From a virus: a DNA stretch of 64,000 bases. How positions within the stretch are numbered: the first letter of the stretch is position 1; every line of letters begins with the position of its first letter. The DNA is taken from IMG/VR virus record IMGVR_UViG_3300037420_001273, one strand, 5' to 3'. Position numbers and translations under genes: made by a program. The notes beneath the pieces were generated by a model that was given only the letters and a program-made list of their open reading frames with translations, made no database searches and was not told the DNA's origin. Positions 7,991-59,139 of the stretch are shown here, in pieces.

Positions 7991-9986
7991 CCTCAGCGTT
8001 CAGTGGAATATCTGCACACCAGGCCGGTGGCGTGCGCATCACCTTGACCATGAAGTCGACGGCCTTCTGACCAACGGCCTTCTTCGCCAATGACACGACC
8101 TCGTCGTGCGTGGTCATGACAACCTGGTACACCTTGTCGATCGCGAGCAGCTGGCCCATCACGACGATCTTGGCCAGCGCCTGGACGATGTTCTCGCACA
8201 GCTTGCCGCCGTACAGCTTCGTAACGCCGTCGCGTGAGTCATAGACCCACGCATGTTCGAACTCTTCATCAGGGATCTGACGCAGGTGCGGGTAGTGCAG
8301 CGTCATGCCGTCAGGCAGATAGACGGTCTCCTTGTCCCAGCTCAAGCACTTCCAGCTGCCGGCGCGACCGACAGCCATGTCGGAGATGATCCGCTCGCAG
8401 ATCTTCCAGCCGATCTGGATCTTGCTGTTCTTGCGGCGGTATGCCTGCACCGCCATGCGGCACGTGTTCTCGTCGAGGAACACCGGCGGGCCCATCGTGC
8501 CGAGCGCGAGCGTGTTCTGGAACTTCTTCCAGGCCGCCTGGTAGCCGAGCATGAGCACGGCGACCTTGCCGACGAAGCGCTCGTCCTTGTCGCTCTTCTC
8601 GATACGCCGGCCGTAGATCTTGTCGCTCTGCTTGCAGTACGGGTCGCGGTCCGTGTGATTGTCCGCGTCGCGGAACTCCTGCAGCAGGTCGAGCTGGTCC
8701 CACAGCCACGCATTCATGCGTGCTTCGATCTGGCTCGAGTCGCACACGGCCAGGACATAGCCCGGCGGGGCTTTGATCGTCTTGCGCAGCTCGCTGCCGC
8801 GGCGCAGGTTCTGGAAGTTCGTCCCGTCACCGCCTCCGAGCCGCTTGGTGTGCGCGCCGGCGTATTTGTAGTACACCGGCAGGGGCAGTCCGTTTGCACC
8901 GAGCTTGAGGAACGTCGCCGCGCGGGTCTCTGTCCCGCTTGACTTCACCATGAGGCGCGCTTCGACCAGGTCGCGCACGCGGTCGTTCGAGTTCTCGAGC
9001 AGCTCGGTGAAGTCCAGGTCCGTCTTGCTGAACGCGTAGGTGTACTTCTTCGCGTCGTCACGCTGATCCTTGGGCTTCTTGATCCACGCCGGGCTGATCT
9101 TCATCGGCGGCTCGATGCCCTCGGCGCGCAGCAGCTCGGCGTAGCGGTCAGAGCCGATCAGCTTCTTGACGCGACGGATCGTCAGCTGTTCCTCGGTCGC
9201 CGTGGGCCCGAGCTTCTTGCGGTCCTCGCTGGTCAGCTTGATGTCTGCGGCCAGGTCGGCGAACGAGAGCAGCAGGGTGCGCTTGCGTTCCAGCTCGCGC
9301 TCGAGCTCTGCCCGGCAGCGGGCTTCGTCGAGCTTGAGCGCTGGTTGCGTGTACATCCGGCAGATGATGTGGATGAGCTCGAGCTCGTCGGCCGGCATCA
9401 TCGGGAGCATCTGCTCGAAGATGCGCCGGGTCTCCTCGCCGTCCTGCATGCAGTACAGCATCGCGCGCTCGAGCTTCGCCTTGTCCTTGGCGAGCTCGGC
9501 CCAGTGCATGCCTTTGAAGTCCTCGGTGCCGCTGGCTGCTTTGCCGCGGCCACCCAGGAAGCGAGCCACTTCGTCCAGGCCCGCGCCGATGGAGTTGCTG
9601 AACAGCCCGCGTGCCATCGACAACGTGCAGTACAAGCGCTTGGGCTTGATGCCGTAGTGGTGGCTCAGGATGAGCCCGTCGAACTGCGTGTGGTGGCACA
9701 GCAAGCTGTGCGTCTCCCACGGGATCTTGCGCAGCTCGGTGGCGATCTTCGGGCCTGGCACGACCTTGGCGGGCTTGTTGCCCACCTGCAGGTACACCAT
9801 CAGGGCTTCGAAGCGCGGATCGCGCACGTACTGCGACGTGGTCAGCTTCTTGAGCGTGTACGTCTCGTCATAGAACGACTCGAAGTCCAGCGTGACGAGC
9901 CGCGACCAGTCGACTTTCTCGGTCGGGAACACCGGCCGCTCGATCACGAGCGACGCCGGCTTCTTGATGGCGGAGGACCAGCCCAT
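7962..9986 (-). CDS. family A DNA polymerase with 3'-5' exonuclease domain
   Basis: Start moved to ATG 9986 (MGWSSAIKK...). Exo motif LDFESFYD; pol motif A CDSSQIEARMNAW; motif B RFVGKVAVLMLGYQAAW; motif C TTHDEVV. Confidence 0.9.
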   Translation of the reverse strand: MGWSSAIKKPASLVIERPVFPTEKVDWSRLVTLDFESFYDETYTLKKLTTSQYVRDPRFEALMVYLQVGNKPAKVVPGPKIATELRKIPWETHSLLCHHTQFDGLILSHHYGIKPKRLYCTLSMARGLFSNSIGAGLDEVARFLGGRGKAASGTEDFKGMHWAELAKDKAKLERAMLYCMQDGEETRRIFEQMLPMMPADELELIHIICRMYTQPALKLDEARCRAELERELERKRTLLLSFADLAADIKLTSEDRKKLGPTATEEQLTIRRVKKLIGSDRYAELLRAEGIEPPMKISPAWIKKPKDQRDDAKKYTYAFSKTDLDFTELLENSNDRVRDLVEARLMVKSSGTETRAATFLKLGANGLPLPVYYKYAGAHTKRLGGGDGTNFQNLRRGSELRKTIKAPPGYVLAVCDSSQIEARMNAWLWDQLDLLQEFRDADNHTDRDPYCKQSDKIYGRRIEKSDKDERFVGKVAVLMLGYQAAWKKFQNTLALGTMGPPVFLDENTCRMAVQAYRRKNSKIQIGWKICERIISDMAVGRAGSWKCLSWDKETVYLPDGMTLHYPHLRQIPDEEFEHAWVYDSRDGVTKLYGGKLCENIVQALAKIVVMGQLLAIDKVYQVVMTTHDEVVSLAKKAVGQKAVDFMVKVMRTPPAWCADIPLNAEGGYAVEYSK

Positions 9987-9991
9987 GCGAC

Positions 9992-10405
9992 TCAGTGTTC
10001 TTGTAGCAACAGCATGACGACGACATCGACCGGTGCAATCAACCCGTCGATCGCGAGCTCGAACGTCCACGTGCCTTTAGGGAAGTCCGTGTACTCGATA
10101 GTTCTCGTCCACGCCGCCGGCTCGTCATCTGCCGAAGAAAGACTGAGCACTGCCGTGTTGTTTGAAGCCACGGCGATCGTCAGCATTCCGGTCGGGTTGC
10201 TTCTCGCTTCCCAGTCGCGCATGACGAGAGGTGCGGCTTCAGTGGCAACGATGTCGAGCAGCCAGTACGCGCCTGCCGATTCAGCCATTGCCTTGACGCC
10301 CTCGGTGTAGATGAACCGCTTGTTGAACGGATGTCGATAGCGGCCGTCGCTGCCACCGAGGTACTGGTCCATGACGGCTTGAAGTTCTTGTGGTGTTGCG
10401 CTCAT
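9992..10405 (-). CDS. DUF6876-like protein
   Basis: 137 aa from ATG 10405. GGSDGRYRHPFNKRFIYTEGVKAMAESAGAYWLLDI matches my memory of DUF6876 (plasmid/phage leading-region family). Confidence 0.5.
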   Translation of the reverse strand: MSATPQELQAVMDQYLGGSDGRYRHPFNKRFIYTEGVKAMAESAGAYWLLDIVATEAAPLVMRDWEARSNPTGMLTIAVASNNTAVLSLSSADDEPAAWTRTIEYTDFPKGTWTFELAIDGLIAPVDVVVMLLLQEH

Positions 10406-10599
10406 TCGTGATCCTCGAGCTGGTTCGACACGGCGTCGGCTGCGTACTGGCACAGGCAGTACTCGTCGACGAGACGGCGGATCTCGTCGTACTCGCGCGA
10501 GCCGTCGTCCATCATCTGGCATGCCTTCTTGCGCGCGAAGTCAGCACGCGTCTGCAGTTTCTCGTGCGCCTTCTTCCTGTCCTCGCTGAGGTAGTTCAT
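10402..10599 (-). CDS. hypothetical protein
   Basis: Track ORF, 65 aa. ATGA overlap with the downstream gene. Confidence 0.4.
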   Translation of the reverse strand: MNYLSEDRKKAHEKLQTRADFARKKACQMMDDGSREYDEIRRLVDEYCLCQYAADAVSNQLEDHE

Positions 10600-22022: not shown

Positions 22023-22041
22023 GGCCTTGTAGGCTCCAAAG

Positions 22042-22067: not shown

Positions 22068-22100
22068 ATGCGACGAAGCGCGTGGTCTACTGGTTTTCAC

Positions 22101-23451: not shown

Positions 23452-23456
23452 GCCTT

Positions 23457-23702: not shown

Positions 23703-23708
23703 GGGATG

Positions 23709-30564: not shown

Positions 30565-30664
30565 CCCCGACTTCGAGCGCCAGCTCGAGTTCGCCAAGGC
30601 CAGCCCCGAGAACACCGCCCCTCTGCCTCCTTTGAACCCCCGGCGCCATGCGCTGGAGAAGGAG

Positions 30665-33600: not shown

Positions 33601-34110
33601 GTGGCAATTTCGAAAGCTGCAAAAGCCGCGTACGACCGCGAATACCGCGCTCGTAACAAGGAGCGCATCGCAGCGCGGAAGGCTGCTTACGTCGCACAAC
33701 ACAAGGAACAAGAGGCCGCTCGCGTGCGTGCGTGGATAGAAACGAACCCCGAGCGGGCGAAGGAAATCAAGAGTCGTTGCCGCGAAAAACGCGCAGAGCA
33801 AGAGCGTGCGTACCAAAGACACGTAGCCCCAAAGAAGGCTGAGTACATGCGGCAATACCGCAAACAGAAGCCGCACGTTTGGAAGAAGGAAACCGCGCAA
33901 CGGCGACGCAGTCTCGGCGCTGCAACACCGCCGTGGGCAGACCGACGCGCACTGGATGCCATTTGGCGCGCCGCACGCAGCGCGGGGTTGCATGTAGACC
34001 ACATAGTCCCGTTGCGAGGGAAGTTTGTTTGTGGCTTGAACGTTCCGTGGAATCTGCAGTTGCTGGACCCCAAGGCGAACCGACAGAAAGGAAATCGCCA
34101 TGCCTATTGA
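33601..34110 (+). CDS. HNH endonuclease
   Basis: LHVDHIVPLRGKFVCGLNVPWNLQLLDPKANRQKGN. GTG 33601 chosen as the start. Sits between terminase and portal. Confidence 0.75.
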   Translation: MAISKAAKAAYDREYRARNKERIAARKAAYVAQHKEQEAARVRAWIETNPERAKEIKSRCREKRAEQERAYQRHVAPKKAEYMRQYRKQKPHVWKKETAQRRRSLGAATPPWADRRALDAIWRAARSAGLHVDHIVPLRGKFVCGLNVPWNLQLLDPKANRQKGNRHAY

Positions 34111-38416: not shown

Positions 38417-39529
38417 ATGGCTCTTACCAATTTCGGTCTGTTGACGACGGAGCAGAAAACCGTCTGGTCGATGGACCTGTGGAAGCAAGCTCGCAACCAG
38501 AGCTTCATCAACCGTTTCCTGGGCAAGGGCCCGAACTCGATGGTGCAACACATCACCGAGTTGAAGAAGACCGAGAAGGGCGCTCGCGCGGTCATCACGC
38601 TGCTGGCCGACCTGACCGGTGACGGCGTCGCCGGCGACCGCACGCTGGAAGGCAACGAAGAGGCGATGCAGACCTTCGACCAGGTCATCCGCATCGACCA
38701 GCTGCGTCACGCCAACCGGCACGAAGGTCGCATGGCCGACCAGAAGTCGATCGTCGAGTTCCGCAACAACAGCCGCGATGTGCTCGCGTACTGGCTGGCG
38801 GACCGCATCGACCAGCTGGCGTTCCTGACCCTGTCCGGCGTCTCGTACGCGAACAAGAACACCGGCGTCGCCCGCACGGGTTCGGACCTGCCGTACCTGG
38901 AGTTCGCCGCCGACGTGGCCACGCCGTCGAGCAACCGCCGCCTGCGCTGGGACGCCACCAACGGCGTGCTGGTGTCGAGCGCCGCGACCTCGGGCATCGC
39001 TTCCACCGACCTGCCGCAGTGGGCCACCTTCGTCGCGCTGAAGGCGTACGCGAAGGAGCGCTACATCCGCGGCATCAAGGACGGCAACGGCGAGGAGACC
39101 TTCCACGCGTTCCTGACCCCGCAGGCGATGTCGCGCCTGAAGCTGGACAACAACTACATGCTGAACCTGCGGCACTCGCAAGAGCGCGGCAACAGCAACG
39201 AGCTGTTCACCGGCACCTCGGTCAAGATCGACGGCATCTACCTGCACGAGTTCCGCCACGTGTACAACACGCGCCTCGCGGCGTCGGGTTCGAAGTGGGG
39301 TTCTGGCGGCACGGTCGACGGCTGCCAGATCCTGTTCTGCGGCGCCCAAGCGCTCGGCATGGCCGACATCGGCGCGCCGGAGTGGGTCGAGAAGGGCTTC
39401 GACTACGAGAACCAGCAGGGCATCTCGGTCGGCAAGATCCTCGGCTTCCTGAAGCCGAAGTTCGGCAACATCTACGAGAGCGGCAGCGTCGAAGACTTCG
39501 GCGTGATCAGCTGCTACGTGGCGCAATAA
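38417..39529 (+). CDS. major capsid protein (N4 gp56-like)
   Basis: 370 aa. MALTNFGLLTTEQKTVWSMDLWKQARNQSFINRFLGKGPNSMVQHITELKKTEKGARAV resembles N4-type MCP N-termini as I recall them. Strong SD GAGAGGAGG; bracketed by terminators. Confidence 0.8.
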   Translation: MALTNFGLLTTEQKTVWSMDLWKQARNQSFINRFLGKGPNSMVQHITELKKTEKGARAVITLLADLTGDGVAGDRTLEGNEEAMQTFDQVIRIDQLRHANRHEGRMADQKSIVEFRNNSRDVLAYWLADRIDQLAFLTLSGVSYANKNTGVARTGSDLPYLEFAADVATPSSNRRLRWDATNGVLVSSAATSGIASTDLPQWATFVALKAYAKERYIRGIKDGNGEETFHAFLTPQAMSRLKLDNNYMLNLRHSQERGNSNELFTGTSVKIDGIYLHEFRHVYNTRLAASGSKWGSGGTVDGCQILFCGAQALGMADIGAPEWVEKGFDYENQQGISVGKILGFLKPKFGNIYESGSVEDFGVISCYVAQ

Positions 39530-41480: not shown

Positions 41481-42080
41481 GTGGCCACTCGCGAAGATCT
41501 GGTCATCGAGCAGGGTCGCACCTTCCACACGGTCGTCCGCTGGGAGGTCGAGCCGCTGGTGTACCGGCCCATCACCGCGATCGCACAGAGTGCGCCGGCG
41601 CGCTTAACGGTGCCCGCGCACGGTGTCGTCGATGGCTGGCGCGTGGCCGTGGTCGACGCGAAGGGCATGACCGAGCTGAACGCCCGCAAGAACCCTCCAG
41701 CGCTGTCCGACTTCCACCGCGTGAACGCCGTCGACTCGAACACGCTCGACCTGCGCAGCGTGAGCTCAGCCAGCTTCAAGCCCTACCGCTCTGGCGGTTA
41801 CATCGCGTACTACACACCGGCTGACCTGACCAGCTACACGGCGCGCATGACGATCAAGAACAAGATCGGCGGCACCGTGTACACGCAGCTCTCTACGACC
41901 GGCGGGACCATCGTGCTCGATCCGACCCTGCGCACGATCACGCTGTCGCTGACTGCTGAGACCACCGCCGCGCTGACCTTCACGAAGGGTGTTTACGACC
42001 TGGAGATGGTGTCGCCCACCGACGTCGTGACAGCGATCCTGTACGGCTCTGTTTCCTTGACCAAAGAGGTGACCACGTGA
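41481..42080 (+). CDS. virion structural protein
   Basis: 199 aa, GTG start, beta-rich. Confidence 0.5.
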   Translation: MATREDLVIEQGRTFHTVVRWEVEPLVYRPITAIAQSAPARLTVPAHGVVDGWRVAVVDAKGMTELNARKNPPALSDFHRVNAVDSNTLDLRSVSSASFKPYRSGGYIAYYTPADLTSYTARMTIKNKIGGTVYTQLSTTGGTIVLDPTLRTITLSLTAETTAALTFTKGVYDLEMVSPTDVVTAILYGSVSLTKEVTT

Positions 42081-42283
42081 GCGACCTGATCTACACCACC
42101 AAAGGCGATTTGCCGATCGACTCGCTCGTCAAGACCGAGACCGTTGTCGACAACGACAACGAGTACACGGTCGCGACGGAATATCGGCTCAAAGACGACC
42201 CGACCGGCGAGGTGGTGCGCCGAGACGTTCACGTGACGCTGAAGCAGGGGCCCGTCCTGTTCGGCGAGCAAGCCACCCTCTGA
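42077..42283 (+). CDS. hypothetical protein
   Basis: Track ORF, 68 aa. Confidence 0.45.
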   Translation: MSDLIYTTKGDLPIDSLVKTETVVDNDNEYTVATEYRLKDDPTGEVVRRDVHVTLKQGPVLFGEQATL

Positions 42284-42293
42284 AGGAGCCACC

Positions 42294-42749
42294 ATGGCCA
42301 ATTCTCAAGCTATCTGCACCTCCTTCAAGGGGGAAATCCTGTCGGGCGTTCATGCGCTCGGCACCACTGTCACGCGCGGCGGCACGACTGCTGACACGGT
42401 CAAAGCGGCGCTGTACCTGGCGACCGGCTCGATCGGCGCTGCCACCACGGCGTACTCGGCGACCAACGAGGTCTCGGGCACCAACTACACCGCCGGCGGC
42501 GTGACCGTCACCAACGGCACCGCGCCGTCGACCTCGGGTACCACGGCGATCTGGACGCCCAGTGCGTCGATCACGTACACGAACGTAACGCTGTCGACGT
42601 CGTTCGACTGCGTGCTGCTCTACAACAGCACCCAATCGAACAAGGCGATCGCCGCGTACATCTTCGGCGCGCAGACGATCACCGCCGGCACCCTGACGCT
42701 CACGATGCCCACGAACGACGCCTCGAACGCGCTGCTCCGTATCGCGTAA
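42294..42749 (+). CDS. small beta-rich virion protein (family also at 52053 and 52586?)
   Basis: 151 aa, Thr/Ser/Ala/Gly-rich. Confidence 0.5.
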   Translation: MANSQAICTSFKGEILSGVHALGTTVTRGGTTADTVKAALYLATGSIGAATTAYSATNEVSGTNYTAGGVTVTNGTAPSTSGTTAIWTPSASITYTNVTLSTSFDCVLLYNSTQSNKAIAAYIFGAQTITAGTLTLTMPTNDASNALLRIA

Positions 42750-42785
42750 TCGAACCTCGAACGACGATCGAAGGAGGTGCCTTAG

Positions 42786-43094
42786 ATGGCTACCAAACTG
42801 AGCGACAGCCAGTCCGTCAGCGCGACCGGCACGTCGAACATTGCTTTCGCAGCGGAGCCCCTCGGCGGCTTCACCGCGCAAGCTTCGCTGGGCACGGCCA
42901 CGTCGGCGACCGTGAAGGTGCAGGTGCGCGTCAACTCGACCAACTGGGTCGATGCCGCCATCTTCAGCCTGAGCTCGGGTGGCACGACCACTGACCTGGT
43001 CAACGTCTGGCCTCCGTACAACCAAGCACGCTGGAACGTGACCGCCGTCGCCGGCGGCACGCTGCTGCTCGACGCCGTCGGCGTGGGGGTCTGA
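42786..43094 (+). CDS. small virion protein
   Basis: Track ORF, 102 aa; SD GAAGGAGG. Confidence 0.5.
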   Translation: MATKLSDSQSVSATGTSNIAFAAEPLGGFTAQASLGTATSATVKVQVRVNSTNWVDAAIFSLSSGGTTTDLVNVWPPYNQARWNVTAVAGGTLLLDAVGVGV

Positions 43095-43095
43095 C

Positions 43096-44022
43096 ATGCC
43101 TGTTCAGAACTACCGCGTCACGTCCGGCGTGCCGATGCCTTGGGCCGAGATCGTCGGCGGCGGTGGACTGGATGTCACCGGCGTCACGTACAACACCAAT
43201 GGCACCGTTGCCACGTATACCGCCAACGGCCGCACGTGGACGTTGAGCTACCTGAGCGACGGTCGCCCCGACACCGAGACGTCTAGCGGCTTCACCCGTC
43301 AGTACACGTACGACGCTTCCGGCAACTTCACCGGCGTGTCGGGCGCCGGGGTCGCGACGAACCAGACCAACAGCGGCACCTTGGCGAACCGACCAAGCAG
43401 CGCACTCGCCGGCGACCGGTATTTCTGCACCGACGTCGGCCCGCACGGCGTGATGACCGAGTACAAGGCATCCGGCTACTGGGGCCCGGCTGGTACGCAG
43501 TTGTTGGAGTCCTTGCTCGGCACCACCTCGTCGCCGGTGTCGAACACGCTCACCAACGCGAATACCACGTCAACGTTGTTCAAGGCGCCAGATGGCACGA
43601 CGCAGCTGATCCGTACGATCCCGGCGAACCTGCTGACGCTCGGCAAGTCGCGCCTGCGCATCCACGTGCGCCCGAAGCGCACGCAGACCAGCGGCACGAA
43701 CTCGATCACCGTCTACATGAAGCTCGGCACTGCCGGCACGACGTCCGACGGCAGCATCAGCAGTAACAGCGTAGGCGCAACCGACGGGATCTCGGCGCAC
43801 CTGATGTACGACCTGATGCTGACCAACCTGTCAGGCAAGGTCGAGTCGTACGGCAACCTGGGCCCCAACGCCACCGCCACGACCGCCGGCGAGATCTCGG
43901 GCACTATCACGTTCACGCCGGCGAACGCGTGGATCATCTCGATCGGAATCACCGGTGTGAACGCGGCCGACACCGGCACGACCATATACCTTACCGACGT
44001 CGCGGTCGAATGGTTGGCGTGA
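43096..44022 (+). CDS. tail/structural protein
   Basis: Track ORF, 308 aa. Confidence 0.55.
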   Translation: MPVQNYRVTSGVPMPWAEIVGGGGLDVTGVTYNTNGTVATYTANGRTWTLSYLSDGRPDTETSSGFTRQYTYDASGNFTGVSGAGVATNQTNSGTLANRPSSALAGDRYFCTDVGPHGVMTEYKASGYWGPAGTQLLESLLGTTSSPVSNTLTNANTTSTLFKAPDGTTQLIRTIPANLLTLGKSRLRIHVRPKRTQTSGTNSITVYMKLGTAGTTSDGSISSNSVGATDGISAHLMYDLMLTNLSGKVESYGNLGPNATATTAGEISGTITFTPANAWIISIGITGVNAADTGTTIYLTDVAVEWLA

Positions 44023-44034
44023 AGGGACACTCTT

Positions 44035-45690
44035 ATGTCCCTTCTGCCGATGTATCAATCGCGGTATCACAAGCCATCCACGACGGCGGCGATCTTTCGC
44101 GGCCCTCGTGTAGCGGCGATTGACTACACCGCGACTGTCGACACGGTGCGCCGTGACCTGACGGCGAAGTTCGACATCGTCCTGCGCAACGGCAGCAGCA
44201 TCGCGAGCAACTTCACCTCGCTGGGCGCCTACACCGCCTTCATCCAGGGCGTGAAGGCGATCAACCCGACGATCAAGTGGCTGAACTACGTCATCGTCAA
44301 CCAGTGGAACACGTCGAACGGTGCGTGGAGCGCGCTGGCGAACGATCTCAACGCGACGGGCGGTAAGGGCGGCCTTGATGGGAAGCCTTGGTGGGTTTTC
44401 GACGCCGGCACGAGCACGCAGCTTTTGCTCGACGGCTCGCCGATGGTCAACCTCACCACGGCGGTCGCCGCCGACTCGAATGGCGACCGCTGGCCCCAGG
44501 TGTGCGGCAAGTGGTGGATCAACACGATGTATTCGGGCGCGCTGGGCGCGGCCCTGGGCATGGACGGCGTGTGGACCGATAACACGTTCTACGCCCCGCG
44601 CAAGAGCAACGACGCGAATCTGAAGATCGGCGACATCAACCTTGACGGTGTCAACGAAACAATCGGCGGTGATGGCCGCGCGTCGAGCTCCACCATCCGA
44701 GCCGCCTACCGCACCGGTGTCCAGGCGTTCTGGACGCAGATGTCATCGCTGCACTCCGGGCTGAAGATCGGCGGCAACAGCGATTACGACGCGAGCGCGC
44801 AGAAGGCGTCGGTCGACACCACCGAACTCACCGGCCGCTGCGACTATCCCTTCCTGGAGTCGTGCACCGGCAAGAGCTTCTCGACTGAGAACAGCGCCGG
44901 CTTCAGCGGCTGGATGACCTGGTACGCGTCGGCCGAGAACGGCTGCAAGGCCGGCGGTAGCGTGTGGGTGCATGCCTCGGCGGATTCGGTGACCAACGCC
45001 AGCCGCGCCTATCGGATCGCGCGCTACATCCTCGCAGTCGCGCACTTGCGTAACGGCTACGCGTGCGTGGCCGACAATCCGAGCGGCGGCTCCAACCAGC
45101 CCATCTGGTACAGCGATTTCGACCCGCTTGTCGCGAACATCGGCACGGCCGTCGATCCGGTGCAGACCGCGGCTTGGTCGAGCAACGTGTGGCGCCGGCG
45201 TTATCAGAACGGCGCCGTCTTCGTGGTCCCGACGGACACCCATGGCGGCTACTTCCGCCTCGGTGGCCTGTCGCTGATCCGCACCGCCAACGTAGTCACG
45301 CTTTCCGGCTCTGGGCTGACGGGGCACGGCGCCGTGGCCGGCGACCTCATCCGCTGGGAGATGGACGGCGTCACGCCAGCTGACGGCAGCTTCAAGGGCT
45401 GCTTCGCGATCACCGCCGTCACGGCGACCTCGATCTCATGGGCACAGACAGGCGCCGCCGACACCTCTTCGCTGACGGGCGTCGAGATGGGCTGGTGGGC
45501 GCTGCAGACGACGATCGACCTGACTGGTCAGGGCTATAAGCGCATCCTCACCACGAGCGACGCGCACAACAACTACGACGGCACGCTCGTCAGCGGCTCG
45601 GCGCCGGTCTATACGTCGCAGAACGACGGCACAGCCTGCGGCCTGGTCAAGTTGTGGGCCGGCGACGGACTAGTGGTGGTAGCAGCATGA
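44035..45690 (+). CDS. tail-associated protein, possibly glycosidase-like
   Basis: 551 aa. MDGVWTDNTFY-type segment suggests a TIM-barrel glycosyl-hydrolase-like fold (weak, recall-based). Confidence 0.5.
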   Translation: MSLLPMYQSRYHKPSTTAAIFRGPRVAAIDYTATVDTVRRDLTAKFDIVLRNGSSIASNFTSLGAYTAFIQGVKAINPTIKWLNYVIVNQWNTSNGAWSALANDLNATGGKGGLDGKPWWVFDAGTSTQLLLDGSPMVNLTTAVAADSNGDRWPQVCGKWWINTMYSGALGAALGMDGVWTDNTFYAPRKSNDANLKIGDINLDGVNETIGGDGRASSSTIRAAYRTGVQAFWTQMSSLHSGLKIGGNSDYDASAQKASVDTTELTGRCDYPFLESCTGKSFSTENSAGFSGWMTWYASAENGCKAGGSVWVHASADSVTNASRAYRIARYILAVAHLRNGYACVADNPSGGSNQPIWYSDFDPLVANIGTAVDPVQTAAWSSNVWRRRYQNGAVFVVPTDTHGGYFRLGGLSLIRTANVVTLSGSGLTGHGAVAGDLIRWEMDGVTPADGSFKGCFAITAVTATSISWAQTGAADTSSLTGVEMGWWALQTTIDLTGQGYKRILTTSDAHNNYDGTLVSGSAPVYTSQNDGTACGLVKLWAGDGLVVVAA

Positions 45691-46162
45691 GCCCCGCAGC
45701 CAGCAGCATCCATTGCTCCGGCTCCGGCACTGAGGAGACGACGACGTGAACCTCAGCCGGCGTGGTCGTCCACCACACTTCGGAGTTGGGCCCGCCGTCC
45801 ATCGAGGCGATGTTCAAGCCCATCCACAGACTCAGCCCTTCCTCGGGGCTGGTGAACGCCATGAAATCGAGCAGCTGATTGGTTGCAACGCGGTAGTCCA
45901 AGCGCGCCACAACGCTGGCCTGCGTGTTGCCGAAGACCGGCATCCACGAGGCGGCATGCAGGCATTCGTTTGGAGTTACGACGCCGTCGCCGTTCATGTC
46001 GTCGACCGTCAGCAAGGCTTGCAGCGCGAACGGCTTGATCATCCACGAGATGTTCTGCGGCAGTTCGTTGTCGAGTCCGCTGACAGTGATCGACAAGTCG
46101 AAGGGCTGAGCGTGGGCGCAACAGATCCCCGCGGCGAGCACCGTCCCGACGAGCAGCTTCAT
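45647..46162 (-). CDS. secreted PEP-CTERM (exosortase-sorted) protein with EF-hand/dockerin-like Ca loop; antisense moron
   Basis: 171 aa. Signal peptide MKLLVGTVLAAGICCAHA|QP; loop DMNGDGVVTPNE; C-terminus VPEPEQWMLLAAGLMLLPPLVRRRP (PEP + TM + Arg cluster). GGAG SD. Overlaps the tail gene convergently by 44 nt. Confidence 0.7.
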   Translation of the reverse strand: MKLLVGTVLAAGICCAHAQPFDLSITVSGLDNELPQNISWMIKPFALQALLTVDDMNGDGVVTPNECLHAASWMPVFGNTQASVVARLDYRVATNQLLDFMAFTSPEEGLSLWMGLNIASMDGGPNSEVWWTTTPAEVHVVVSSVPEPEQWMLLAAGLMLLPPLVRRRPTT

Positions 46163-46240
46163 GTCCGTCTCCGTTGTTATGCCCGAGACGATACGCAGCA
46201 GACGCTGTACCTGAATCCCACGAATGAGGGATGACGCCCC

Positions 46241-47404
46241 ATGTCGAACAACACCACTCTGAACCTCGGCTCCGGCGGCGACGTAGTTCGCACGTTAGAT
46301 CGTCAGTCGAACGGCACGAAGACGCAGGTCGTACAGCTGGACGTCGGGGGTGCGTCCACCAACGCCGAAGCGCTCCTGACCGGCGGGCAGCAGACGATGG
46401 CGAACTCGTTGCCCGTCGTCATCGCATCTAATCAGTCCGGCGTCGCAACCCTGACGCAAGACGCGACCGGCACCGGCATCACGTCGCTGGCTGATGGCGC
46501 CGGCGCGGTGGGCTTGATGTCGTCGATGTGCGCGACGAACTACGTCGTCTCGACCGCCAACAGCACGACCACGCAGCTGGCCGCGAGCGCGACGTTCAAC
46601 GGCACGATCGAGACGGTGTTCAACCAGCAGGCAGTGTCGATCCTGCTGACGTGCGACCAGAACTGCACGCTGACCGTCAACCAGTACATCGACTCCGGCG
46701 GCACGCGCGTCAGCAGCACGTGGACTTTCAGCGTCACGGCGGGCTCGCCCTTCAGCCGCTGCCTGGTGGCCAACGGCAACTACATCAAGTTCTCGCTGCA
46801 GAACAATGGCGGCTCGACGACGACCACGCTGAACCTGAACGTCGCCTACGGCACGCTGCCGAACTCGACGCAGCTGGGCAACAACAGCACGGCGATCAAC
46901 GAGATCGGCGGCACGCAGGTATCGACGCCGTACTTGCCGGTGTTCAAGACGAACACCAGCCGCACGTTCGTTCACCTCTGGGCCGTGGCTGCGGCAGCCG
47001 GCACGACCGGCACCGAGACCGCGATCACGCTGACGCGCTCCGGCGCGGCCGGCGCGTCGACGACCACCGGTACCAGCTTCACGCCGACCAGCGGCAAGCG
47101 CTTTCGCATCACGTCGATGTCGTTCGCCACGCGCGGCAACGCGACTGCGACCGTGCAGACCACGACGTTCGCGCTGCGCGTGAACACCGCCGGCGCTGTC
47201 ACTACGACTTCGAACATCTGGTTCTCGGCGCGCTCAGCGACGCCGGCCACGGCCAGCGCCTGGGACCGCTACGCACTCAACTTCGGCGACGACGGGCCTG
47301 AGCTGGTCGGTGACGGCACGCTGCAGTACGGCGTGACGGCGGCGGCGACGTACACAACCAACGCGCCGACGTGGGACGTCGAAATCACCGGCTACGAGTT
47401 CTGA
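46241..47404 (+). CDS. virion structural protein
   Basis: Track ORF, 387 aa (MSNNTTLNLGSGGDVVRTLDRQSNGTKTQVVQLDVGG...). Confidence 0.6.
   Translation: MSNNTTLNLGSGGDVVRTLDRQSNGTKTQVVQLDVGGASTNAEALLTGGQQTMANSLPVVIASNQSGVATLTQDATGTGITSLADGAGAVGLMSSMCATNYVVSTANSTTTQLAASATFNGTIETVFNQQAVSILLTCDQNCTLTVNQYIDSGGTRVSSTWTFSVTAGSPFSRCLVANGNYIKFSLQNNGGSTTTTLNLNVAYGTLPNSTQLGNNSTAINEIGGTQVSTPYLPVFKTNTSRTFVHLWAVAAAAGTTGTETAITLTRSGAAGASTTTGTSFTPTSGKRFRITSMSFATRGNATATVQTTTFALRVNTAGAVTTTSNIWFSARSATPATASAWDRYALNFGDDGPELVGDGTLQYGVTAAATYTTNAPTWDVEITGYEF
46294..46302. promoter_or_regulatory. GTTAGATCG copy embedded at the 5' end of gene 46241..47404
   Basis: Uses the rare TTA codon (ACG TTA GAT CGT). Confidence 0.35.
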
Positions 47405-47424
47405 TCTAACGTCTAACGAAGATC
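47403..47424. promoter_or_regulatory. GATCTAAC-GTCTAACGAAGATCG (inverted-orientation copies)
   Basis: Fills the 20-nt gap upstream of the fibre gene's GTG. Confidence 0.4.
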
Positions 47425-49719
47425 GTGCTGCTGTTCCATCAGAACCTGCTGAACGGCAATCGCTACGTGAATCATCACGTGGCGGGCACGTGGCTGCCCG
47501 GACTGCGCGAACGCGCGCAGATCATGTTCTTCAGCGCGAACCAGGCGAGCGCGGCGCTCACTGGGTCGAGCGCCACTACGACCGCCGGAACTGCTGCGCC
47601 CACGATCTCAGTCGCGCTTACCGGTACGACGGCCTCCACTGGCCAGGGCTCGTTCCCGCTCGTCTATGGCATCGGTACCCGTGTGGTCAATCCGCACGTG
47701 GCCGGGCGCTGGGTACCTGATGTCGCGGAGCGCGCGAAGCTGCTCCTGTTCTCGGCCACCCTGAGCAACGTTGCGCTCGCTGGCTCGAGTGCTACCGCCT
47801 CCGCGGGGTCCGCCACGGCGGCAATCAGCACGGCTCTGACTGGCGTCGGTGCAACCTCAGCAGTCGGCGCGATCACGTCGTCGTCGACTGTCGCCCTGAC
47901 CGGCTCCGCGTCGACGGCCTCCGCGGGCACGATGGCGCCGACGCACACGGCTGCGCTGTCCGGGAGCGCCGCCACTGGCGCCCAAGGCAGCGTGTCGGCC
48001 AGCGGCAGCGGCTCAGCCTCGCTCAGCGGCTCGGCTGCTACGGCCTCCACCGGTACGCCGGCGGTGACGCACACCGTGGCCCTGACGGGCGCTTCAGCCA
48101 CGTCTGCGCAAGGCTCCGTCATCCCCGGGCTGCAGCTCACCGGTGCCCAGGCAACCGGCGCTGCGGGCACGCTCGGCGTCGCCGCTGCGATCCCGCTCAC
48201 CGGCGCCTCGAACACTGCTGCGGCGGGCGCGCTGTCCGCCGGCGTGACGCTCGCGCTGAACGGGCAGGGCGCCGTGATCGCTCAGGGCCAGTTCTCGGCG
48301 GTGTTCGATGCCTATGGCGCACGGGCGGTCAACCGCCACGTTGCGGGCACCTGGTCGCCGGTGATGCACCAGCGAGCCGTGGTGATGATGACCGGCGGCT
48401 CCCTGGTCGGTCAGCAGGCGAGTGCAGCCGCCGGGGCGATGACGACTTCGCGCACGATCGCGCTCACCGGCGCCGCCGCTACGGCGCAGGCTGGGGCGCT
48501 CTCGGCGAACCAACCTGCCGGCGTCAACCCAACCGTCACCGGCTGGTGGACCGGCGCTGTCGTCAAGCGTTTCTCGTTGCTGGCGCCCGGCATCGAGCTG
48601 ATCGGTGTGTCGGCCGCGGCGTCCACCGGTGTTCTCTCGCCTGTGCGCAGCATCGCGCTCACCGGCTCGATTGCCACGGCCGCAGCTGGTTCGCTCGCCG
48701 CGACGATCCGCGTGGCGCCGAGCGGTTTGTCCGCTACGGGCGCACAGGGTTCTGTTGGGCCGGCTCAGCCTCTGGTCGGCAGCAGCCTGACTGGCGCCAC
48801 AGGTACGCTGAACCTCGTCAACTCGCCTGCGCTGAGCAACGCGCTCGCCAGCACCTCCGCCGGCAACCTCGGCGAGCTGGTGTCTGCATTCGCGCTCACC
48901 GGTGGCTCTGCTACGTCGCTCACCGGTACTGCCGCGCCGGCTATCACGATCGCGCTCACCGGCGCCGCCGCTACGGCCGCCGGCGGTACGCTGTCTGCAT
49001 CCAAATCCCTCAACGGCGCTGCCGCCACGGCTGCGGCCGGCACGCTCGGCGTGACGACCAGCATCGCGCTGACCGGCTCGGCTGCTGCGGGCGCGCAGGG
49101 CTCGGTTGGTACGAGCTTCGCCGGCAACGTGAGCCTGACCGGCTCTGCTGCGACGGCCGCGGCTGGCGTTCCTGGCGTCTCAGTCACGATCGCGCTGTCT
49201 GGCGCCGGTGCAGCCGCCGCGGTGGGCTCCGTCGGCCAGTCGCGCGCTGTCAGCACCAGCGGCGCGGCGGCCTCGAGCGTCGCAGGCAGCGTCGCTGCGG
49301 TCATCGCGAAGGCGCTCGCCGGCGCGCAGGCTGCGATGCAGGCCGGTGCCGTCAATATCCAGGGCGACTCCACGATCGCGCTCACTGGTACCGGCGCAGC
49401 GGCTGCGCAAGGGTCTCTCAGCTCGAGCTTCGCGGTCGGCGTTACCGGCGCGCAACTGGTCGCGGCGCAGGGCGCTGTCGACAAGGTGCTCGGCGCCGCG
49501 CTGTACGGCGCGTCCTTGAGCGCTCAGGCGGGTACCTTCATCGTCACCGGCGGCGTCATCGGCAGCGACGGCGGCGTGACCTCGCCCATCTACGCCCGCA
49601 CGTTCATTGACCAGCGCACCGCCCAGACGTTTATCGACGATCGCTTCGCTCACACCACAGACGGCGATACGAGTGCATCGACGTCTGACTCTGACATCGC
49701 TGCTTACACCCGGGAGTGA
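47425..49719 (+). CDS. repeat-rich Ala/Gly/Thr/Ser fibre-like protein
   Basis: 764 aa, GTG start. About 30 copies of a 19-21-aa unit (xALTGSAATAAAGTLxxxxx), plus four VNxHVAGxWxP...ERAxLLxF-type modules. Confidence 0.65.
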   Translation: MLLFHQNLLNGNRYVNHHVAGTWLPGLRERAQIMFFSANQASAALTGSSATTTAGTAAPTISVALTGTTASTGQGSFPLVYGIGTRVVNPHVAGRWVPDVAERAKLLLFSATLSNVALAGSSATASAGSATAAISTALTGVGATSAVGAITSSSTVALTGSASTASAGTMAPTHTAALSGSAATGAQGSVSASGSGSASLSGSAATASTGTPAVTHTVALTGASATSAQGSVIPGLQLTGAQATGAAGTLGVAAAIPLTGASNTAAAGALSAGVTLALNGQGAVIAQGQFSAVFDAYGARAVNRHVAGTWSPVMHQRAVVMMTGGSLVGQQASAAAGAMTTSRTIALTGAAATAQAGALSANQPAGVNPTVTGWWTGAVVKRFSLLAPGIELIGVSAAASTGVLSPVRSIALTGSIATAAAGSLAATIRVAPSGLSATGAQGSVGPAQPLVGSSLTGATGTLNLVNSPALSNALASTSAGNLGELVSAFALTGGSATSLTGTAAPAITIALTGAAATAAGGTLSASKSLNGAAATAAAGTLGVTTSIALTGSAAAGAQGSVGTSFAGNVSLTGSAATAAAGVPGVSVTIALSGAGAAAAVGSVGQSRAVSTSGAAASSVAGSVAAVIAKALAGAQAAMQAGAVNIQGDSTIALTGTGAAAAQGSLSSSFAVGVTGAQLVAAQGAVDKVLGAALYGASLSAQAGTFIVTGGVIGSDGGVTSPIYARTFIDQRTAQTFIDDRFAHTTDGDTSASTSDSDIAAYTRE
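47570..49500 (+). repeat. intragenic tandem repeats (about 57-63 nt period)
   Basis: Recurrent ATCGCGCTCACCGGC... words. For example, the 29-mer ATCGCGCTCACCGGCGCCGCCGCTACGGC occurs at about 48453 and about 48950. Confidence 0.8.
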
Positions 49720-50177
49720 CCATGCAGTTGAGCCCCCACTTCTCTCTGGCCGAATTCACGGTGACGCAGCACCGCGAGATCGACAACACGCTACCGCCGG
49801 ACCTGTATAACGAGGCCCGTCGCACCTGCCAGCTGCTCGAGCGCGTGCGCGACTTCCTGTCGAACAAGCTCGGGCGCGAGGTGCCGCTCACGCTGTCCAG
49901 CGGCTATCGCTGTCTCGAGCTCAACCGCGCCGTGGGCTCGGCGGACTCGAGCGACCACATCAAGGCGATGGCCGCCGACATGGTCGCGCCGGTGTTCGGC
50001 ACGCCGCTGAAGATCGCGAGCACGCTCGCGCCCTACGTCGATCAGCTCGGAGTGGGGCAGCTGATTCACGAGTACGGCCGCTGGGTCCACCTGTCGACCC
50101 GCACGCCGGACAAGACGCTGAACCGGATCATCACGATCAGCGGTGCGGGGACGTTCGTAGGAGTGCTGCCTTGCTGA
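49716..50177 (+). CDS. endolysin, Peptidase_M15 (zinc D-Ala-D-Ala / L-Ala-D-Glu peptidase-like)
   Basis: SGYRCLELNRAVGSADSSDHIKAMAADM...GRWVHL gives the H/D/H zinc-ligand pattern. Confidence 0.75.
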   Translation: MTMQLSPHFSLAEFTVTQHREIDNTLPPDLYNEARRTCQLLERVRDFLSNKLGREVPLTLSSGYRCLELNRAVGSADSSDHIKAMAADMVAPVFGTPLKIASTLAPYVDQLGVGQLIHEYGRWVHLSTRTPDKTLNRIITISGAGTFVGVLPC

Positions 50178-50805: not shown

Positions 50806-52056
50806 ATGACCGCGAACGACCGCCAGAAGTCCCTCGGCCCGTTCTCGCTGGGGGTCAACAACCGTCTGCCCGACTTTAAGTTGCGGACCAAAGACGGCGA
50901 CTTCGTTCGCTCTGCCGTCAACGTCGACCTGACCACGGAAGGCTCGTTCAAGCGCCGCGGCGGAACGCTCAAGCTCATCGCTGGTGACCAAGCATCTTCG
51001 CTGTGGTCAGACGAGGACGACGCCTTCTACTTGGATTCGGGGACGCTCTATCGCCTCAGCGGTAGCGTTTCCTCGCCAGTCCGCGTTCCGCTTGCGAGCG
51101 GGCTTCCGAACAAAAGCTTCAGCTACACGCGCGCCGGCGCCGAGATTTACGCGAGCAACGGGCAGCAGCTGTACCGGATCAGCGGTAATTCACTCCTCGT
51201 CGCTGGTGTTCCGCTCATTGCGCCGGAACCGGACGTGACCGCCGCGTCTGGAGGCTCGCTGCCCGCCGGCGAGTACCAGGTGTGTTTCACCTATGTCGCG
51301 GAGGATCTGGAAGAAAGCGGCTCAACCGTACCTGTACGTGTGAGTGTCGGCCTCAACGGAGCGCTGTCGTTCACCAACATCCCGACGCCGCCCGCGGGGG
51401 CAGTGCTGCGCGTCTACATGACTTCGGTGAACGATAACGTCCTGCTGCGCGCGTTTGACATGCCGGCGTCTGGGAGCTTCACTCTTACCGCGCGGCCTAC
51501 GCTGGGCTCGCGCTGCATGACATTGCTGCTGCGGCCGATGCCGGCTGGCGACGTCGTGCGCTGGTTGAACGGCCGCTTGTACGTCGCCGCCGGCGACACC
51601 GTGTACTACAGCGAGCCCTACGCGCCGACGCTGTTCAACCCGGCGCGCAACTACATCCTGTTCCCTTCGACTATCTCCATGCTGGAGACGTGCCAAAACG
51701 GCCTGTACGTCGCCGCCGACCAGACCTACTGGCTTGGTGGTGATCCAAGCGGCGCGTCGCTCGACCCAGTGCTCCCGTATGGAGCTGTTCCCGGCTCGAG
51801 CGTGCAGTCGCCGGTGAAGAACGAGTGCTTTTGGATGAGCGTGCGCGGTCTCGTACGCGGCGATCAGAACGGCGTAGCCACCAACTTGCAAGAGGCGTTC
51901 GTTGCGGTGGAGCCTGCACAAGCAGGCTCCACTTTGTTTCGCGAGCAGGACGGCGTCCGCCAGGTGCTGTCGTCGCTCTTCGGTGGCGAGCAGACCGTGA
52001 CGGCTGCTCGCAGCTACATGGACGCGGAAGTGATCCGCAAGGAGACCATTCTATGA
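50806..52056 (+). CDS. tail/structural protein
   Basis: Track ORF, 416 aa. No SD; TATAAT lies 7 nt upstream of the ATG. Confidence 0.6.
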   Translation: MTANDRQKSLGPFSLGVNNRLPDFKLRTKDGDFVRSAVNVDLTTEGSFKRRGGTLKLIAGDQASSLWSDEDDAFYLDSGTLYRLSGSVSSPVRVPLASGLPNKSFSYTRAGAEIYASNGQQLYRISGNSLLVAGVPLIAPEPDVTAASGGSLPAGEYQVCFTYVAEDLEESGSTVPVRVSVGLNGALSFTNIPTPPAGAVLRVYMTSVNDNVLLRAFDMPASGSFTLTARPTLGSRCMTLLLRPMPAGDVVRWLNGRLYVAAGDTVYYSEPYAPTLFNPARNYILFPSTISMLETCQNGLYVAADQTYWLGGDPSGASLDPVLPYGAVPGSSVQSPVKNECFWMSVRGLVRGDQNGVATNLQEAFVAVEPAQAGSTLFREQDGVRQVLSSLFGGEQTVTAARSYMDAEVIRKETIL

Positions 52057-57877: not shown

Positions 57878-58900
57878 ATGTCCAGCTTCCCGCTGCCTGA
57901 CCCGCCCAGCACTGTTGCCTACGCGGTCACTGCCGCGAGCCGCATCTTCAACGGCTTGTGGGAGACCGCGCAGGAGAAGTCCGTCAAGTTCGACGCGCGC
58001 CTGGATGACACAACGGCGAACGTCCCGGCGTCGATGGCGCTGGCGCCGGCGCCCGTGATCTCCGGCTTCACCACTCCGACGTTGCCGACGCCGCCCACGA
58101 GCATGAACGCCTCTGACCTCGAGGCGCTTTACAACAACAATGTGAGCGCGCTGGAAGAGCTGCTGGTCAGCTCTTACTCGGACTACCTGGCTACTTACTT
58201 CCCAGCTGGGACGTACTTGTCGCAGGCTCAGTCGTGGATCGAAAACGTGCTGAGCACCGGCGGCACTGGCGTGAATCCGACCGTCGAGGCGCAGCTGTGG
58301 GAGCGAGATCGCGCGCGTGTGCTGCAAGAAGCCGCCCGCATGGAGGAGGAGCTGCTGACGACCTGGGCTGGTCGGCGCTTCCCGCTGCCGCCTGGCGCAC
58401 TCACGTATCAGGTCCTGCAAGTCCGCAAAGACTCCTCGGACAAGATCGCCGAGAGCTCGCGCAACACGGCGATCAAGGTCTACGAGATTCAGGTAGAGCA
58501 AGCGCGTTTTGCCGTTCAGCAGGCGCTTGCGCTGCGACAGCAGGCCGTGCAGGCGGCAGGGGAATACATGCGCAATCTGGCGTTGGCGCCGCAGATCGGC
58601 GCGACGCTCGCCGCAGCTCTCGCTGATGCGCAGGCTCGCCTGGCCAGCGTGACGACGGAGTACTACAAGGCACTGATCGCTGCGCAGGAGATCCCTCTGC
58701 GCGTAGCGACCACGAACGCCGAGCTGGCGGTGCGCGTCGAAGAGCTGCGCGGCCGGCTGGATGTGGATCTGATCGACAAGCGCGTTCAGGCAGCGATCGG
58801 CGCGGCTCAGATGTACAGCACGCAGGCGGCGGCGGCCTTCAACGCGCTGCACAGCCAGGCTGCCATCAGCTCGAGCGACAGCGTGAGCACTTCGCTCTAA
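57878..58900 (+). CDS. structural/internal virion protein
   Basis: Track ORF, 340 aa, helical, Ala/Gln-rich. Confidence 0.55.
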   Translation: MSSFPLPDPPSTVAYAVTAASRIFNGLWETAQEKSVKFDARLDDTTANVPASMALAPAPVISGFTTPTLPTPPTSMNASDLEALYNNNVSALEELLVSSYSDYLATYFPAGTYLSQAQSWIENVLSTGGTGVNPTVEAQLWERDRARVLQEAARMEEELLTTWAGRRFPLPPGALTYQVLQVRKDSSDKIAESSRNTAIKVYEIQVEQARFAVQQALALRQQAVQAAGEYMRNLALAPQIGATLAAALADAQARLASVTTEYYKALIAAQEIPLRVATTNAELAVRVEELRGRLDVDLIDKRVQAAIGAAQMYSTQAAAAFNALHSQAAISSSDSVSTSL

Positions 58901-59085
58901 CGGAAGAAGAACTGACCGATGCCGACGAACAACCCGATTGCTGTTGCGACGGCGAAGATCGCCCAGAGCAGCCACTGCGCCCAGCGCCGCGGCTGCTCAA
59001 GGTACCAGTTCTTGTTGTCCAGCAGCGACTGGATCTCCTGGATAGGTTGAGGCGTCAGCTCTTCGACCACGTTCTTGAGTTTCAT
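58897..59085 (-). CDS. small C-terminally anchored membrane protein, antisense moron
   Basis: 62 aa from ATG 59085: MKLKNVVEELTPQPIQEIQSLLDNKNWYLEQPRRWAQWLLWAIFAVATAIGLFVGIGQFFFR. Lies between two plus-strand late genes. Confidence 0.45.
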   Translation of the reverse strand: MKLKNVVEELTPQPIQEIQSLLDNKNWYLEQPRRWAQWLLWAIFAVATAIGLFVGIGQFFFR

Positions 59086-59112
59086 GGCCGGGCTTCTAGC
59101 ACACGCCTGCAA

Positions 59113-59139
59113 ATCGTACAATCTAAGTTAGATCGAAGG
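59113..59139. promoter_or_regulatory. ATCGTAC...TCTAAGTTAGATCGAAGG element
   Basis: Upstream of 59147..60916. TCTAA-G-TTAGA forms an inverted repeat. Confidence 0.55.

Follow-up and report, generated by a model that had tools for sequence, protein, structure and literature searches.

What is a minus-strand gene for a protein with a bacterial surface-sorting tag doing among the plus-strand late genes of a phage? The question is raised by nucleotides 45647..46162 (minus strand, ATG start, stop codon included) of IMGVR_UViG_3300037420_001273, a 64,000-nucleotide stretch of viral DNA that we analyzed over its full length and refer to as the window. An earlier note, written from the sequence alone, described the 171-amino-acid (aa) product as an exported protein with a calcium loop and a C-terminal PEP-CTERM signal that depends on a host exosortase; the coordinates, strand, and sequence that it quoted match the open reading frame (ORF) list and the DNA exactly. 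Many environmental Gram-negative bacteria have the PEP-CTERM/exosortase system, which has been linked to the formation of exopolysaccharide, flocs, and biofilm; no attachment target is known for exosortase substrates. The best explanation of the locus, with a probability of about 60%, is that the gene encodes a phage surface protein that would be exported by Sec and delivered by the exosortase of the infected host. That we are dealing with a real, conserved phage gene for a PEP-CTERM-type secreted protein is considerably firmer, and we regard it as very likely. The window phage itself is, as judged from its predicted proteins, a KPP25-like podovirus.

The tag occupies residues 145-168 (45659..45730, minus strand). 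It begins with V145-P-E-P148, 23 residues from the C-terminal end, and continues with 17 mostly hydrophobic residues (EQWMLLAAGLMLLPPLV), RRR, and about four residues to the end of the protein, retaining every element of the PEP-CTERM definition given by Haft et al. 2006 (PMC1569441). In an alignment of 21 relatives, from which all conservation figures given here are taken, VPEP and G157 are invariant and the RR pair is invariant or nearly so. Ten NCBIfam PEP-CTERM family models match residues 131-168 (best E value 3.8e-7), with scores that stay under the full-length cut-offs, since the alignments cover the tag alone, and PF07589 is matched by 21 of 21 relatives at E<=1. The general model TIGR02595, with a cut-off of 16 bits, is passed by the two phage orthologues described below (P0002, 21.6 bits; P0003, 23.7 bits) and by cellular relatives at 23-28 bits (P0009, 28.2). 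The search with PEP-CTERM hidden Markov models (HMMs) that the earlier note had called for has thus been made, and a lack of HMM support, which that note would have counted against the tag, is not what it found. The preservation of VPEP, helix, and RR(R) in three phage copies that are only 34-43% identical argues for selection on the sorting motif itself. PEP-CTERM proteins co-occur with EpsH/exosortase, and the processing model for the pair comes from the same study (PMC1569441).

The other end of the protein carries the second element needed for such a route. A Kyte-Doolittle scan found only two hydrophobic segments, residues 1-18 and residues 151-166 within the tag. The first (MKLLVGTVLAAGICCAHA; 46109..46162, minus strand) consists of MK, a 13-residue hydrophobic core, and then AHA/QP, where cleavage is predicted; A18 and P20 are near-invariant among the relatives, giving an AxA-xP pattern. 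Hydropathy and conservation therefore bear out the proposal that this is a Sec signal peptide. The mature part is acidic, with 14 D+E residues against 3 K+R, and acidic mature parts with few basic residues are typical of PEP-CTERM proteins (PMC1569441). A lipoprotein, such as a u-spanin, was also considered and was rejected: the contexts of C14 and C15 (AGIC, GICC) fail the pattern [LVI][ASTVI][GAS]C, and both cysteines are missing in the homologues.

Between the two hydrophobic segments, residues 55-66 (DMNGDGVVTPNE; 45965..46000, minus strand) form an EF-hand-type Ca2+ loop that satisfies 12 of the 12 EF-hand loop positions, with ligands at positions 1, 3, 5, and 12, glycine at position 6, and a hydrophobic position 8. 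Among the relatives, D55 and E66 never vary, and G58 and D59 are near-invariant. At position 13 of the PROSITE pattern PS00018 the window protein has a cysteine where a hydrophobic residue is expected; 15 of the 21 relatives match the full pattern. The family profile also aligns with EF-hand loops of solved calcium-binding proteins (2m7n, E value 3.5e-6), and no EF-hand Pfam model matches the 171-aa protein. An AlphaFold2 model of the cellular homologue P0009 is of good quality (predicted local distance difference test [pLDDT] score 82.8, above 90 in the core) and consists of an all-beta domain, in which a single loop is preceded by a beta-strand and no helix-loop-helix pair is formed. The loop had been called EF-hand/dockerin-like. 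The likeness to canonical EF-hands and dockerins holds for the 12-residue loop itself, with its ligands, glycine, and hydrophobic position; it does not extend to a helix-loop-helix or to an EF-hand or dockerin domain, since the loop of the phage family is single, follows a beta-strand, and has the cysteine at position 13. Judged from the model, the loop would work like an EF-hand loop in a protein that appears to be neither an EF-hand nor a dockerin domain. Loops of the DxDxDG type occur in non-EF-hand folds, and the loop of the phage protein resembles these.

Where does such a protein come from? A word-indexed search with the 171-aa protein found only an identical fragment in a JGI metagenome, and tblastn and megablast searches with the gene found no match among 50,697 phage records. 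A tblastn search of the same 50,697 records with the family-consensus tag peptide was also negative, possibly as a result of low-complexity masking. An exhaustive HMMER scan of 1.8 billion representatives, however, found three full-length relatives, and a profile search extended these to about 25; in a metagenome scan with the phage-type alignment, the matches listed showed similarity at the level of the tag only. The window protein forms a single clade of phage-type proteins with P0002 and P0003 (164-171 aa, 34-43% mutual identity). The P0002 gene lies antisense at 9953..10447 of a 95.5-kb IMG/VR contig (L002), where it overlaps the 3' end of a 556-aa gene by 44 nucleotides (10404..10447). 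In the window, the PEP-CTERM gene overlaps the 3' end of a convergent 551-aa gene by the same 44 nucleotides (45647..45690). The P0003 gene, on a 1.6-kb contig, is laid out in like manner, with a divergent gene upstream and a convergent gene that overlaps it by 53 nucleotides. Because position and architecture are kept in these two other phage contigs, the PEP-CTERM gene is not a chance ORF.

The cellular relatives are 187-199 aa long and are homologous to the phage proteins over their full length, at 30-34% identity. They are found in Pseudoduganella lutea (P0009), P. plicata (P0028), and P. lurida, under the NCBI name 'PEP-CTERM sorting domain-containing protein', and in Massilia sp. X63. 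Their genes have an ordinary chromosomal context, typically beside a divergent second PEP-CTERM gene, and the cellular members of the family thus appear to be chromosomal genes of Oxalobacteraceae. Phage and cellular proteins share the order of signal peptide, beta strands, EF-hand-type loop, beta domain with a conserved Trp, and VPEP tag. They differ in length, the phage copies being shorter by 16-30 residues, and in the tree, where the phage copies make up a clade apart; the genes differ in setting as well: the cellular ones have a long AT-rich upstream region and the divergent PEP-CTERM partner, while the phage gene has a 78-nucleotide gap and overlaps the 551-aa late gene. The 171-aa protein has no match in PHROG or in the PADLOC defence library, and no curated NCBIfam or Pfam model covering the passenger domain of the family was found. 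By these comparisons the window protein is a divergent member of an uncurated PEP-CTERM subfamily, and its gene is most likely a host-derived phage accessory gene.

Two observations concern the cellular loci. In P. plicata (L004, 523-10308) the family member at 4128-4709 is followed by a truncated prophage with terminase, portal, and ClpP protease genes, and two more PEP-CTERM genes bracket the region. One of these two encodes a 225-aa protein that shares 37% identity with the 227-aa product of the divergent PEP-CTERM gene beside the P. lutea family member; the PEP-CTERM genes therefore look chromosomal and the prophage looks inserted. In addition, both P. lutea (L003, around 9930-9945) and P. 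plicata (L004, around 4048-4062) have a AAATTGCAATTT-like palindrome before the start codon, within AT-rich leaders. It may be a regulator site, and it is absent upstream of the phage copies.

How would the phage protein reach the cell surface, and to what end? We infer its expression and timing, its processing by an exosortase, its surface location, the identity of the host, and the benefit to the phage along the following lines. The precursor would be translated from its own GGAG site in the infected cell and exported by Sec, with the signal peptide cut after AHA18. The C-terminal helix would then hold the protein in the inner membrane, oriented so that RRR lies in the cytoplasm and VPEP faces the periplasm. 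There a host exosortase of the XrtA/EpsH type would recognize VPEP and remove the anchor, and the remaining acidic beta domain of about 125 residues would be forwarded to the cell surface or to the exopolysaccharide layer. Ca2+-dependent interactions of this domain could alter the surface of the infected cell to the benefit of the phage. The most plausible effects would be masking or alteration of the polysaccharide receptor layer that the GHL15-like product of the neighbouring 551-aa gene may target, or a change in the cohesion of cell aggregates.

Three arguments indicate that the tag is in use: it has been kept in three phage copies at 34-43% identity, the host-derived passenger has been kept together with its Ca2+ ligands, and the cassette places the gene beside a candidate polysaccharide hydrolase. 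Processing by the host exosortase is accordingly the better supported part of the proposal and seems probable. A role in surface remodelling or exclusion is possible, and the superinfection exclusion, receptor masking, or floc remodelling that the earlier note had put forward is speculative. Use of the tag implies a host with an exosortase, and it is reasonable to expect one in this host, which by the relationships of the protein is probably an Oxalobacteraceae-like betaproteobacterium. The Massilia/Pseudoduganella group has a GC content similar to that of the window. XrtA, PrsK, and PrsR have been reported in Janthinobacterium, another member of the Oxalobacteraceae (PMC8929069). Among possible roles we rank modification of the surface or receptor layer (exclusion or masking) first, an exosortase decoy that loosens flocs second, and an exosortase-independent exclusion or lysis accessory in the inner membrane third. 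A fuller scenario, in which the phage lineage captured a host PEP-CTERM protein, has long kept it in a fast-evolving receptor-interaction cassette, and displays this Ca2+-binding protein on the infected cell or within its exopolysaccharide by way of the host exosortase, is possible but less likely than not.

Several results weigh against delivery to the surface by an exosortase, and the first of them concern the tag. PF07589 scores 14.2 bits on the window copy, under its cut-off of 20.7, and TIGR02595 does not report the window copy at all. The tag is in fact the most divergent of the family, with PEP-EQ and, atypically, two prolines in the helix. It had been called a textbook signal; this is apt for the VPEP motif, the helix, and the basic cluster at the C-terminus, but not for the scores, which are under the PF07589 and TIGR02595 thresholds although the orthologues pass. 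Structure gives little help: the AlphaFold2 model of the window protein is poor (pLDDT 54.5) and was set aside, and Foldseek searches with the P0009 model found nothing significant (best PDB E value 0.017, with template modelling [TM] scores below 0.33; TM at most 0.37 in BFVD). Life style also bears on the question. KPP25 is a virulent phage, and no integrase was found among the window proteins scanned, so that a long-term role in lysogenic conversion is unlikely.

The remaining difficulties lie in expression. A divergent gap of 78 nucleotides (46163..46240) separates the gene from the next plus-strand gene, which starts at 46241, and a GGAG sequence at 46169-46172 lies 6 nucleotides before the ATG; coordinates and sequence confirm this gap, the gene's own GGAG, and the 44-nucleotide convergent overlap, as the earlier note had described them. 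Within the 78-nucleotide gap there is no sigma-70 consensus. No convincing terminator was found, the single weak terminator-like hairpin being inside the neighbouring gene, and RNA of the 3' overlap region folds no more stably than shuffled sequences. The upstream regions of the window and L002 genes give no meaningful alignment, and no motif is common to this gap and the other intergenic regions of the window. Many proteobacterial PEP-CTERM genes have a PrsR site and a sigma-54 promoter (PMC1569441; PMC9850573); in 99 of 167 genes, a 17-nucleotide motif ending in TTTACA is followed after about 63 nucleotides by a sigma-54 site with GG at -24 and GC at -12, an arrangement that is thus not obligatory (PMC1569441). 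The window has AGGTAC-N5-CTGCT, 38 nucleotides before the ATG, which agrees with the sigma-54 consensus at 8 of 12 positions, but each strand of the window has 74 matches of this quality (about one in 865 nucleotides), and the TTTACA motif is absent within 400 nucleotides upstream. With a match at background level, no TTTACA, and no obvious site in the cellular homologues, control by sigma-54 and PrsR was rejected as more than a weak lead. The upstream region of the L002 gene contains, by our own reading, a 9 of 12 match to the sigma-54 consensus.

Given that no promoter, sigma-54 or PrsR site, or terminator was found and that the upstream region is not conserved, independent expression of the PEP-CTERM gene is a possibility suggested by its orientation and its own ribosome-binding site. 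Late transcription that continued from the 551-aa gene into the 387-aa gene beyond would run antisense to the PEP-CTERM gene. Perhaps such antisense read-through would fit expression of the gene before the late phase. The term moron, which had been applied to the gene, is therefore only partly justified. In its favour are the opposite strand, the gene's own Shine-Dalgarno sequence, the cellular homologues, and its presence in L002 and the P0003 contig but not in KPP25 or the examined part of another phage contig (L005, below); the promoter and terminator of an independent unit were looked for and not found.

Could the protein serve the phage by engaging the exosortase rather than by reaching the surface? 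As a decoy or competitor made in bulk, it would saturate the exosortase of the host, so that delivery of the host's own PEP-CTERM proteins fails, flocs or matrix loosen, and progeny escape. The protein does mimic a host family at 30-34% identity; at 164-171 aa, the phage versions fall short of the 187-199 aa of the cellular ones; prolines in the helix make the tag atypical; and the gene has a candidate polysaccharide hydrolase as neighbour. PEP-CTERM proteins are also reported to be needed for the flocs of Zoogloea and Aquincola (PMC9850573; Gao et al. 2018). In a dummy substrate, however, one would hardly expect the Ca2+ loop and the conserved beta-domain positions to have been retained; that they are suggests a functional passenger, and we consider a decoy unlikely.

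A second alternative does without the exosortase altogether. The signal peptide and the single C-terminal helix would by themselves give a periplasmic protein tethered to the inner membrane, which could act in superinfection exclusion by blocking DNA entry or as a spanin-like or antiholin-like lysis accessory. Phages often encode small exclusion proteins that are anchored in a membrane (T4 Imm and Sp, P22 SieA), an endolysin gene lies 3.5 kb downstream, and the generic PEP-CTERM HMMs are sub-threshold for the window copy. If a plain membrane anchor were all that is needed, it is difficult to see why VPEP, helix, and RR(R) should be kept in three phage copies and in all cellular relatives, or why the homology to chromosomal PEP-CTERM proteins, which are encoded outside lysis cassettes, should run the full length of the protein. 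The protein is also not a u-spanin, because it has no lipobox. This alternative is less likely again than a decoy, and delivery by the exosortase remains the preferred reading.

A third alternative is that there is no functional gene at all, and that the ORF arose by chance or is a decaying remnant. The window has a GC content of about 64% and contains many shadow ORFs, the gene has no promoter that could be found, and its tag is weaker than those of the orthologues. Since long chance ORFs are common in GC-rich DNA, the coding potential of 45647..46162 was tested. The GC content at codon positions 1, 2, and 3 is 0.61, 0.45, and 0.81 on the minus strand, the same pattern as in the secure genes of the window, with position 1 above position 2, unlike shadow frames. 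A plus-strand ORF that opposes it (45746..46234) has values of 0.82, 0.44, and 0.58, and was ruled out as a real gene; these values mark it as the shadow of the minus-strand frame. The minus-strand gene thus occupies a 550-nucleotide stretch without any plus-strand gene over it, and it has a Shine-Dalgarno sequence and an ATG. With ORF, architecture, and motifs kept in three phages and in about 25 cellular relatives, a spurious ORF is effectively refuted by conservation. A protein of the virion or of tail assembly whose gene happens to be on the minus strand, such as a fibre chaperone or decoration protein, might be suspected from the late structural block and from a cassette that co-varies with putative receptor-binding genes, but it is effectively excluded by a cleavable signal peptide and C-terminal anchor that would route the protein out of the cytoplasm, where tailed phages assemble, by homologues that are chromosomal bacterial surface proteins, and by the lack of a PHROG match.

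How does a phage protein delivered by a host exosortase compare with known systems? Envelope proteins that phages make in infected or lysogenic cells include Bor and Lom of lambda, SieA of P22, and Imm and Sp of T4. The window gene resembles these small accessory genes, which are often in opposite orientation and whose products go to the host envelope and alter the surface or entry; it differs in lying inside the late structural cassette of a KPP25-like phage and in overlapping the 551-aa late gene. None of these proteins is known to use an exosortase/PEP-CTERM route. Among bacterial systems, a close parallel is offered by the PepA-type floc proteins of Zoogloea resiniphila and Aquincola (NF033554), which depend on XrtA, PrsK/PrsR, and RpoN. 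Both are small secreted proteins with a PEP-CTERM tag, from a betaproteobacterial setting, and their presumed destination is the matrix of exopolysaccharide or floc. The similarity, however, is limited to the tag (NF033554, E value 0.15), and the phage gene lacks the sigma-54/PrsR site and is encoded by a phage.

PEP-CTERM ORFs are also found on other viral contigs. Two family patterns, run against IMG/VR, matched 312 stretches, and three ORFs on two of the contigs pass the Pfam threshold: one at 4851-5477 of L014 (30.7 bits), antisense beside a RusA resolvase gene, and a tandem pair at 2914-3606 and 4054-4746 of L013 (39.3 and 37.1 bits). Like the window gene, these encode PEP-CTERM-tagged secreted proteins on viral contigs, and the L014 ORF is likewise antisense to its neighbours; unlike it, they have tags above the Pfam threshold and passenger domains that are unrelated to the window protein. 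The L013 pair could belong to host DNA that flanks a prophage. Taken together, the contigs suggest that exosortase substrates may be a kind of phage cargo that recurs and has gone undescribed. A literature search found no description of a tailed phage with a PEP-CTERM protein, and the nearest mention is of a PEP-CTERM domain in a conserved gene of the IME1 elements of Dehalococcoides. If the proposed route is correct, no exosortase substrate encoded by a virus would have been described before the window protein, whose role would be in superinfection exclusion or in the remodelling of flocs and biofilms.

A phage that keeps its own substrate would show that viruses exploit the PEP-CTERM/exosortase pathway, and the need for an exosortase would make the PEP-CTERM gene a host marker for uncultured phages. 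The passenger of about 125 residues would also be a natural minimal one, giving a small and simple experimental substrate for dissecting the action of exosortases. Together with its hydrolase-like neighbour, the protein suggests a functional pair, in which one partner would cleave the matrix enzymatically and the other would become part of it. If the gene is silent or its product independent of the exosortase, it would be merely another small phage membrane protein. The interest is thus moderate: the gene makes a little-known sorting pathway accessible to tests and provides a marker of host range, with no new mechanism demonstrated.

The genes around the PEP-CTERM gene form a cassette (42077-49719) that is matched by L002 5662-13971. 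Its upstream part (42077..44022, plus strand) encodes proteins of 68, 151, 102, and 308 aa, which tblastn places in the same order in L002. Then follow the convergent 551-aa late gene (44035..45690, plus strand), the PEP-CTERM gene, a divergent 387-aa gene (46241..47404, plus strand), and a gene for a 764-aa repeat protein rich in Ala, Gly, Ser, and Thr (47425..49719, plus strand), the last of the cassette before the endolysin. Identities between the window and L002 proteins are 37% (68 aa), 81% (151 aa), 74% (102 aa), 45% (308 aa), 45% (551 aa, against the 556-aa homologue), 43% (PEP-CTERM protein), and about 30% (the repeat protein, against a 771-aa homologue). The divergence of the PEP-CTERM gene matches that of the distal, presumably host-interacting proteins, which indicates that the gene is old in the cassette. 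Crude dN/dS values between window and L002 are 0.57 for the PEP-CTERM gene and 0.71 for two neighbours; saturation and codon bias make these values unreliable. In the 20 kb of L002 examined, no match was found to the head, portal, or lysis/endolysin genes of the window, so that the cassette may move between phages; it looks like an exchangeable host-interaction module.

The 551-aa protein gives a weak match to PF14885 (GHL15, glycosyl-hydrolase-like; E value 1.6e-5, 25.4 bits, under the cut-off of 27), and is a candidate polysaccharide-degrading or receptor-binding protein on that basis. A protein search with it returned two metagenomic sequences only, and it has no match in the genome contig collection. 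A 74% identical copy of its gene occurs at 5968-7608 of an otherwise unrelated IMG/VR phage contig (L005), where it directly precedes a gene that looks portal-like by eye from its translation. The PEP-CTERM gene is absent from the 13.6 kb of L005 examined, which is evidence that the 551-aa gene has been exchanged horizontally by itself. The 308-, 551-, 387-, and 764-aa neighbours have no PHROG matches, and PDB sequence searches with three neighbour proteins gave nothing useful, with no match for the 551-aa protein. The location had been described as a tail module. With neighbours that lack PHROG matches and a GHL15 match that is sub-threshold, this label is plausible at most.

Where the window has the single 387-aa gene between the PEP-CTERM gene and the repeat protein, L002 has three different genes (8008-9870), for proteins of 117, 136, and 361 aa. 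Four or five Asp-box/BNR-like SxDxGxTW repeats can be made out by eye in the largest of these proteins, which suggests another glycan-directed protein. In the 764-aa protein of the window the motif ALTG..A...G recurs, and the local GC content climbs to 0.75, well over the window average.

The rest of the window is organized in two blocks. The first 29 kb encode DNA polymerase, helicase, primase, and exonuclease on the minus strand. The late block on the plus strand contains the large terminase (30332-32215), a P22-type portal (34100-36238), the major head protein (38417-39529), the endolysin (49716-50177), an Hc3-type head-closure protein (50806-52056), and further virion structural proteins. 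The major head protein is 65% identical to those of the Pseudomonas phages KPP25 and phiR18 (64-kb genomes, genus Kochitakasuvirus) and 52% identical to that of Acidovorax phage AP1. In KPP25, a few small genes lie between the structural proteins and the endolysin, the late genes all run in one direction, and there is no counterpart of the window block at about 42.1-49.7 kb; the PEP-CTERM gene is thus part of a variable segment inserted among the late genes. No further PEP-CTERM ORFs, tRNA genes, or Rfam families were found in the window. In the early region, a gene list based on GC content at the third codon position leaves stretches without a confident gene at 21350-23931 (2.6 kb), 16542-17478, and 3067-4046 (about 0.9-1.0 kb each).

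The credible late genes are all on the plus strand from 29.7 kb to the end of the window, with the exceptions of the PEP-CTERM gene and 58897..59121. The count of two minus-strand late genes in the earlier note is thus correct, the latter being the sole other minus-strand ORF with a coding pattern. Its product has no PHROG match; read from an internal ATG, it is about 62 aa long and ends in a C-terminal hydrophobic helix (WLLWAIFAVATAIGLFVGIGQFFF).

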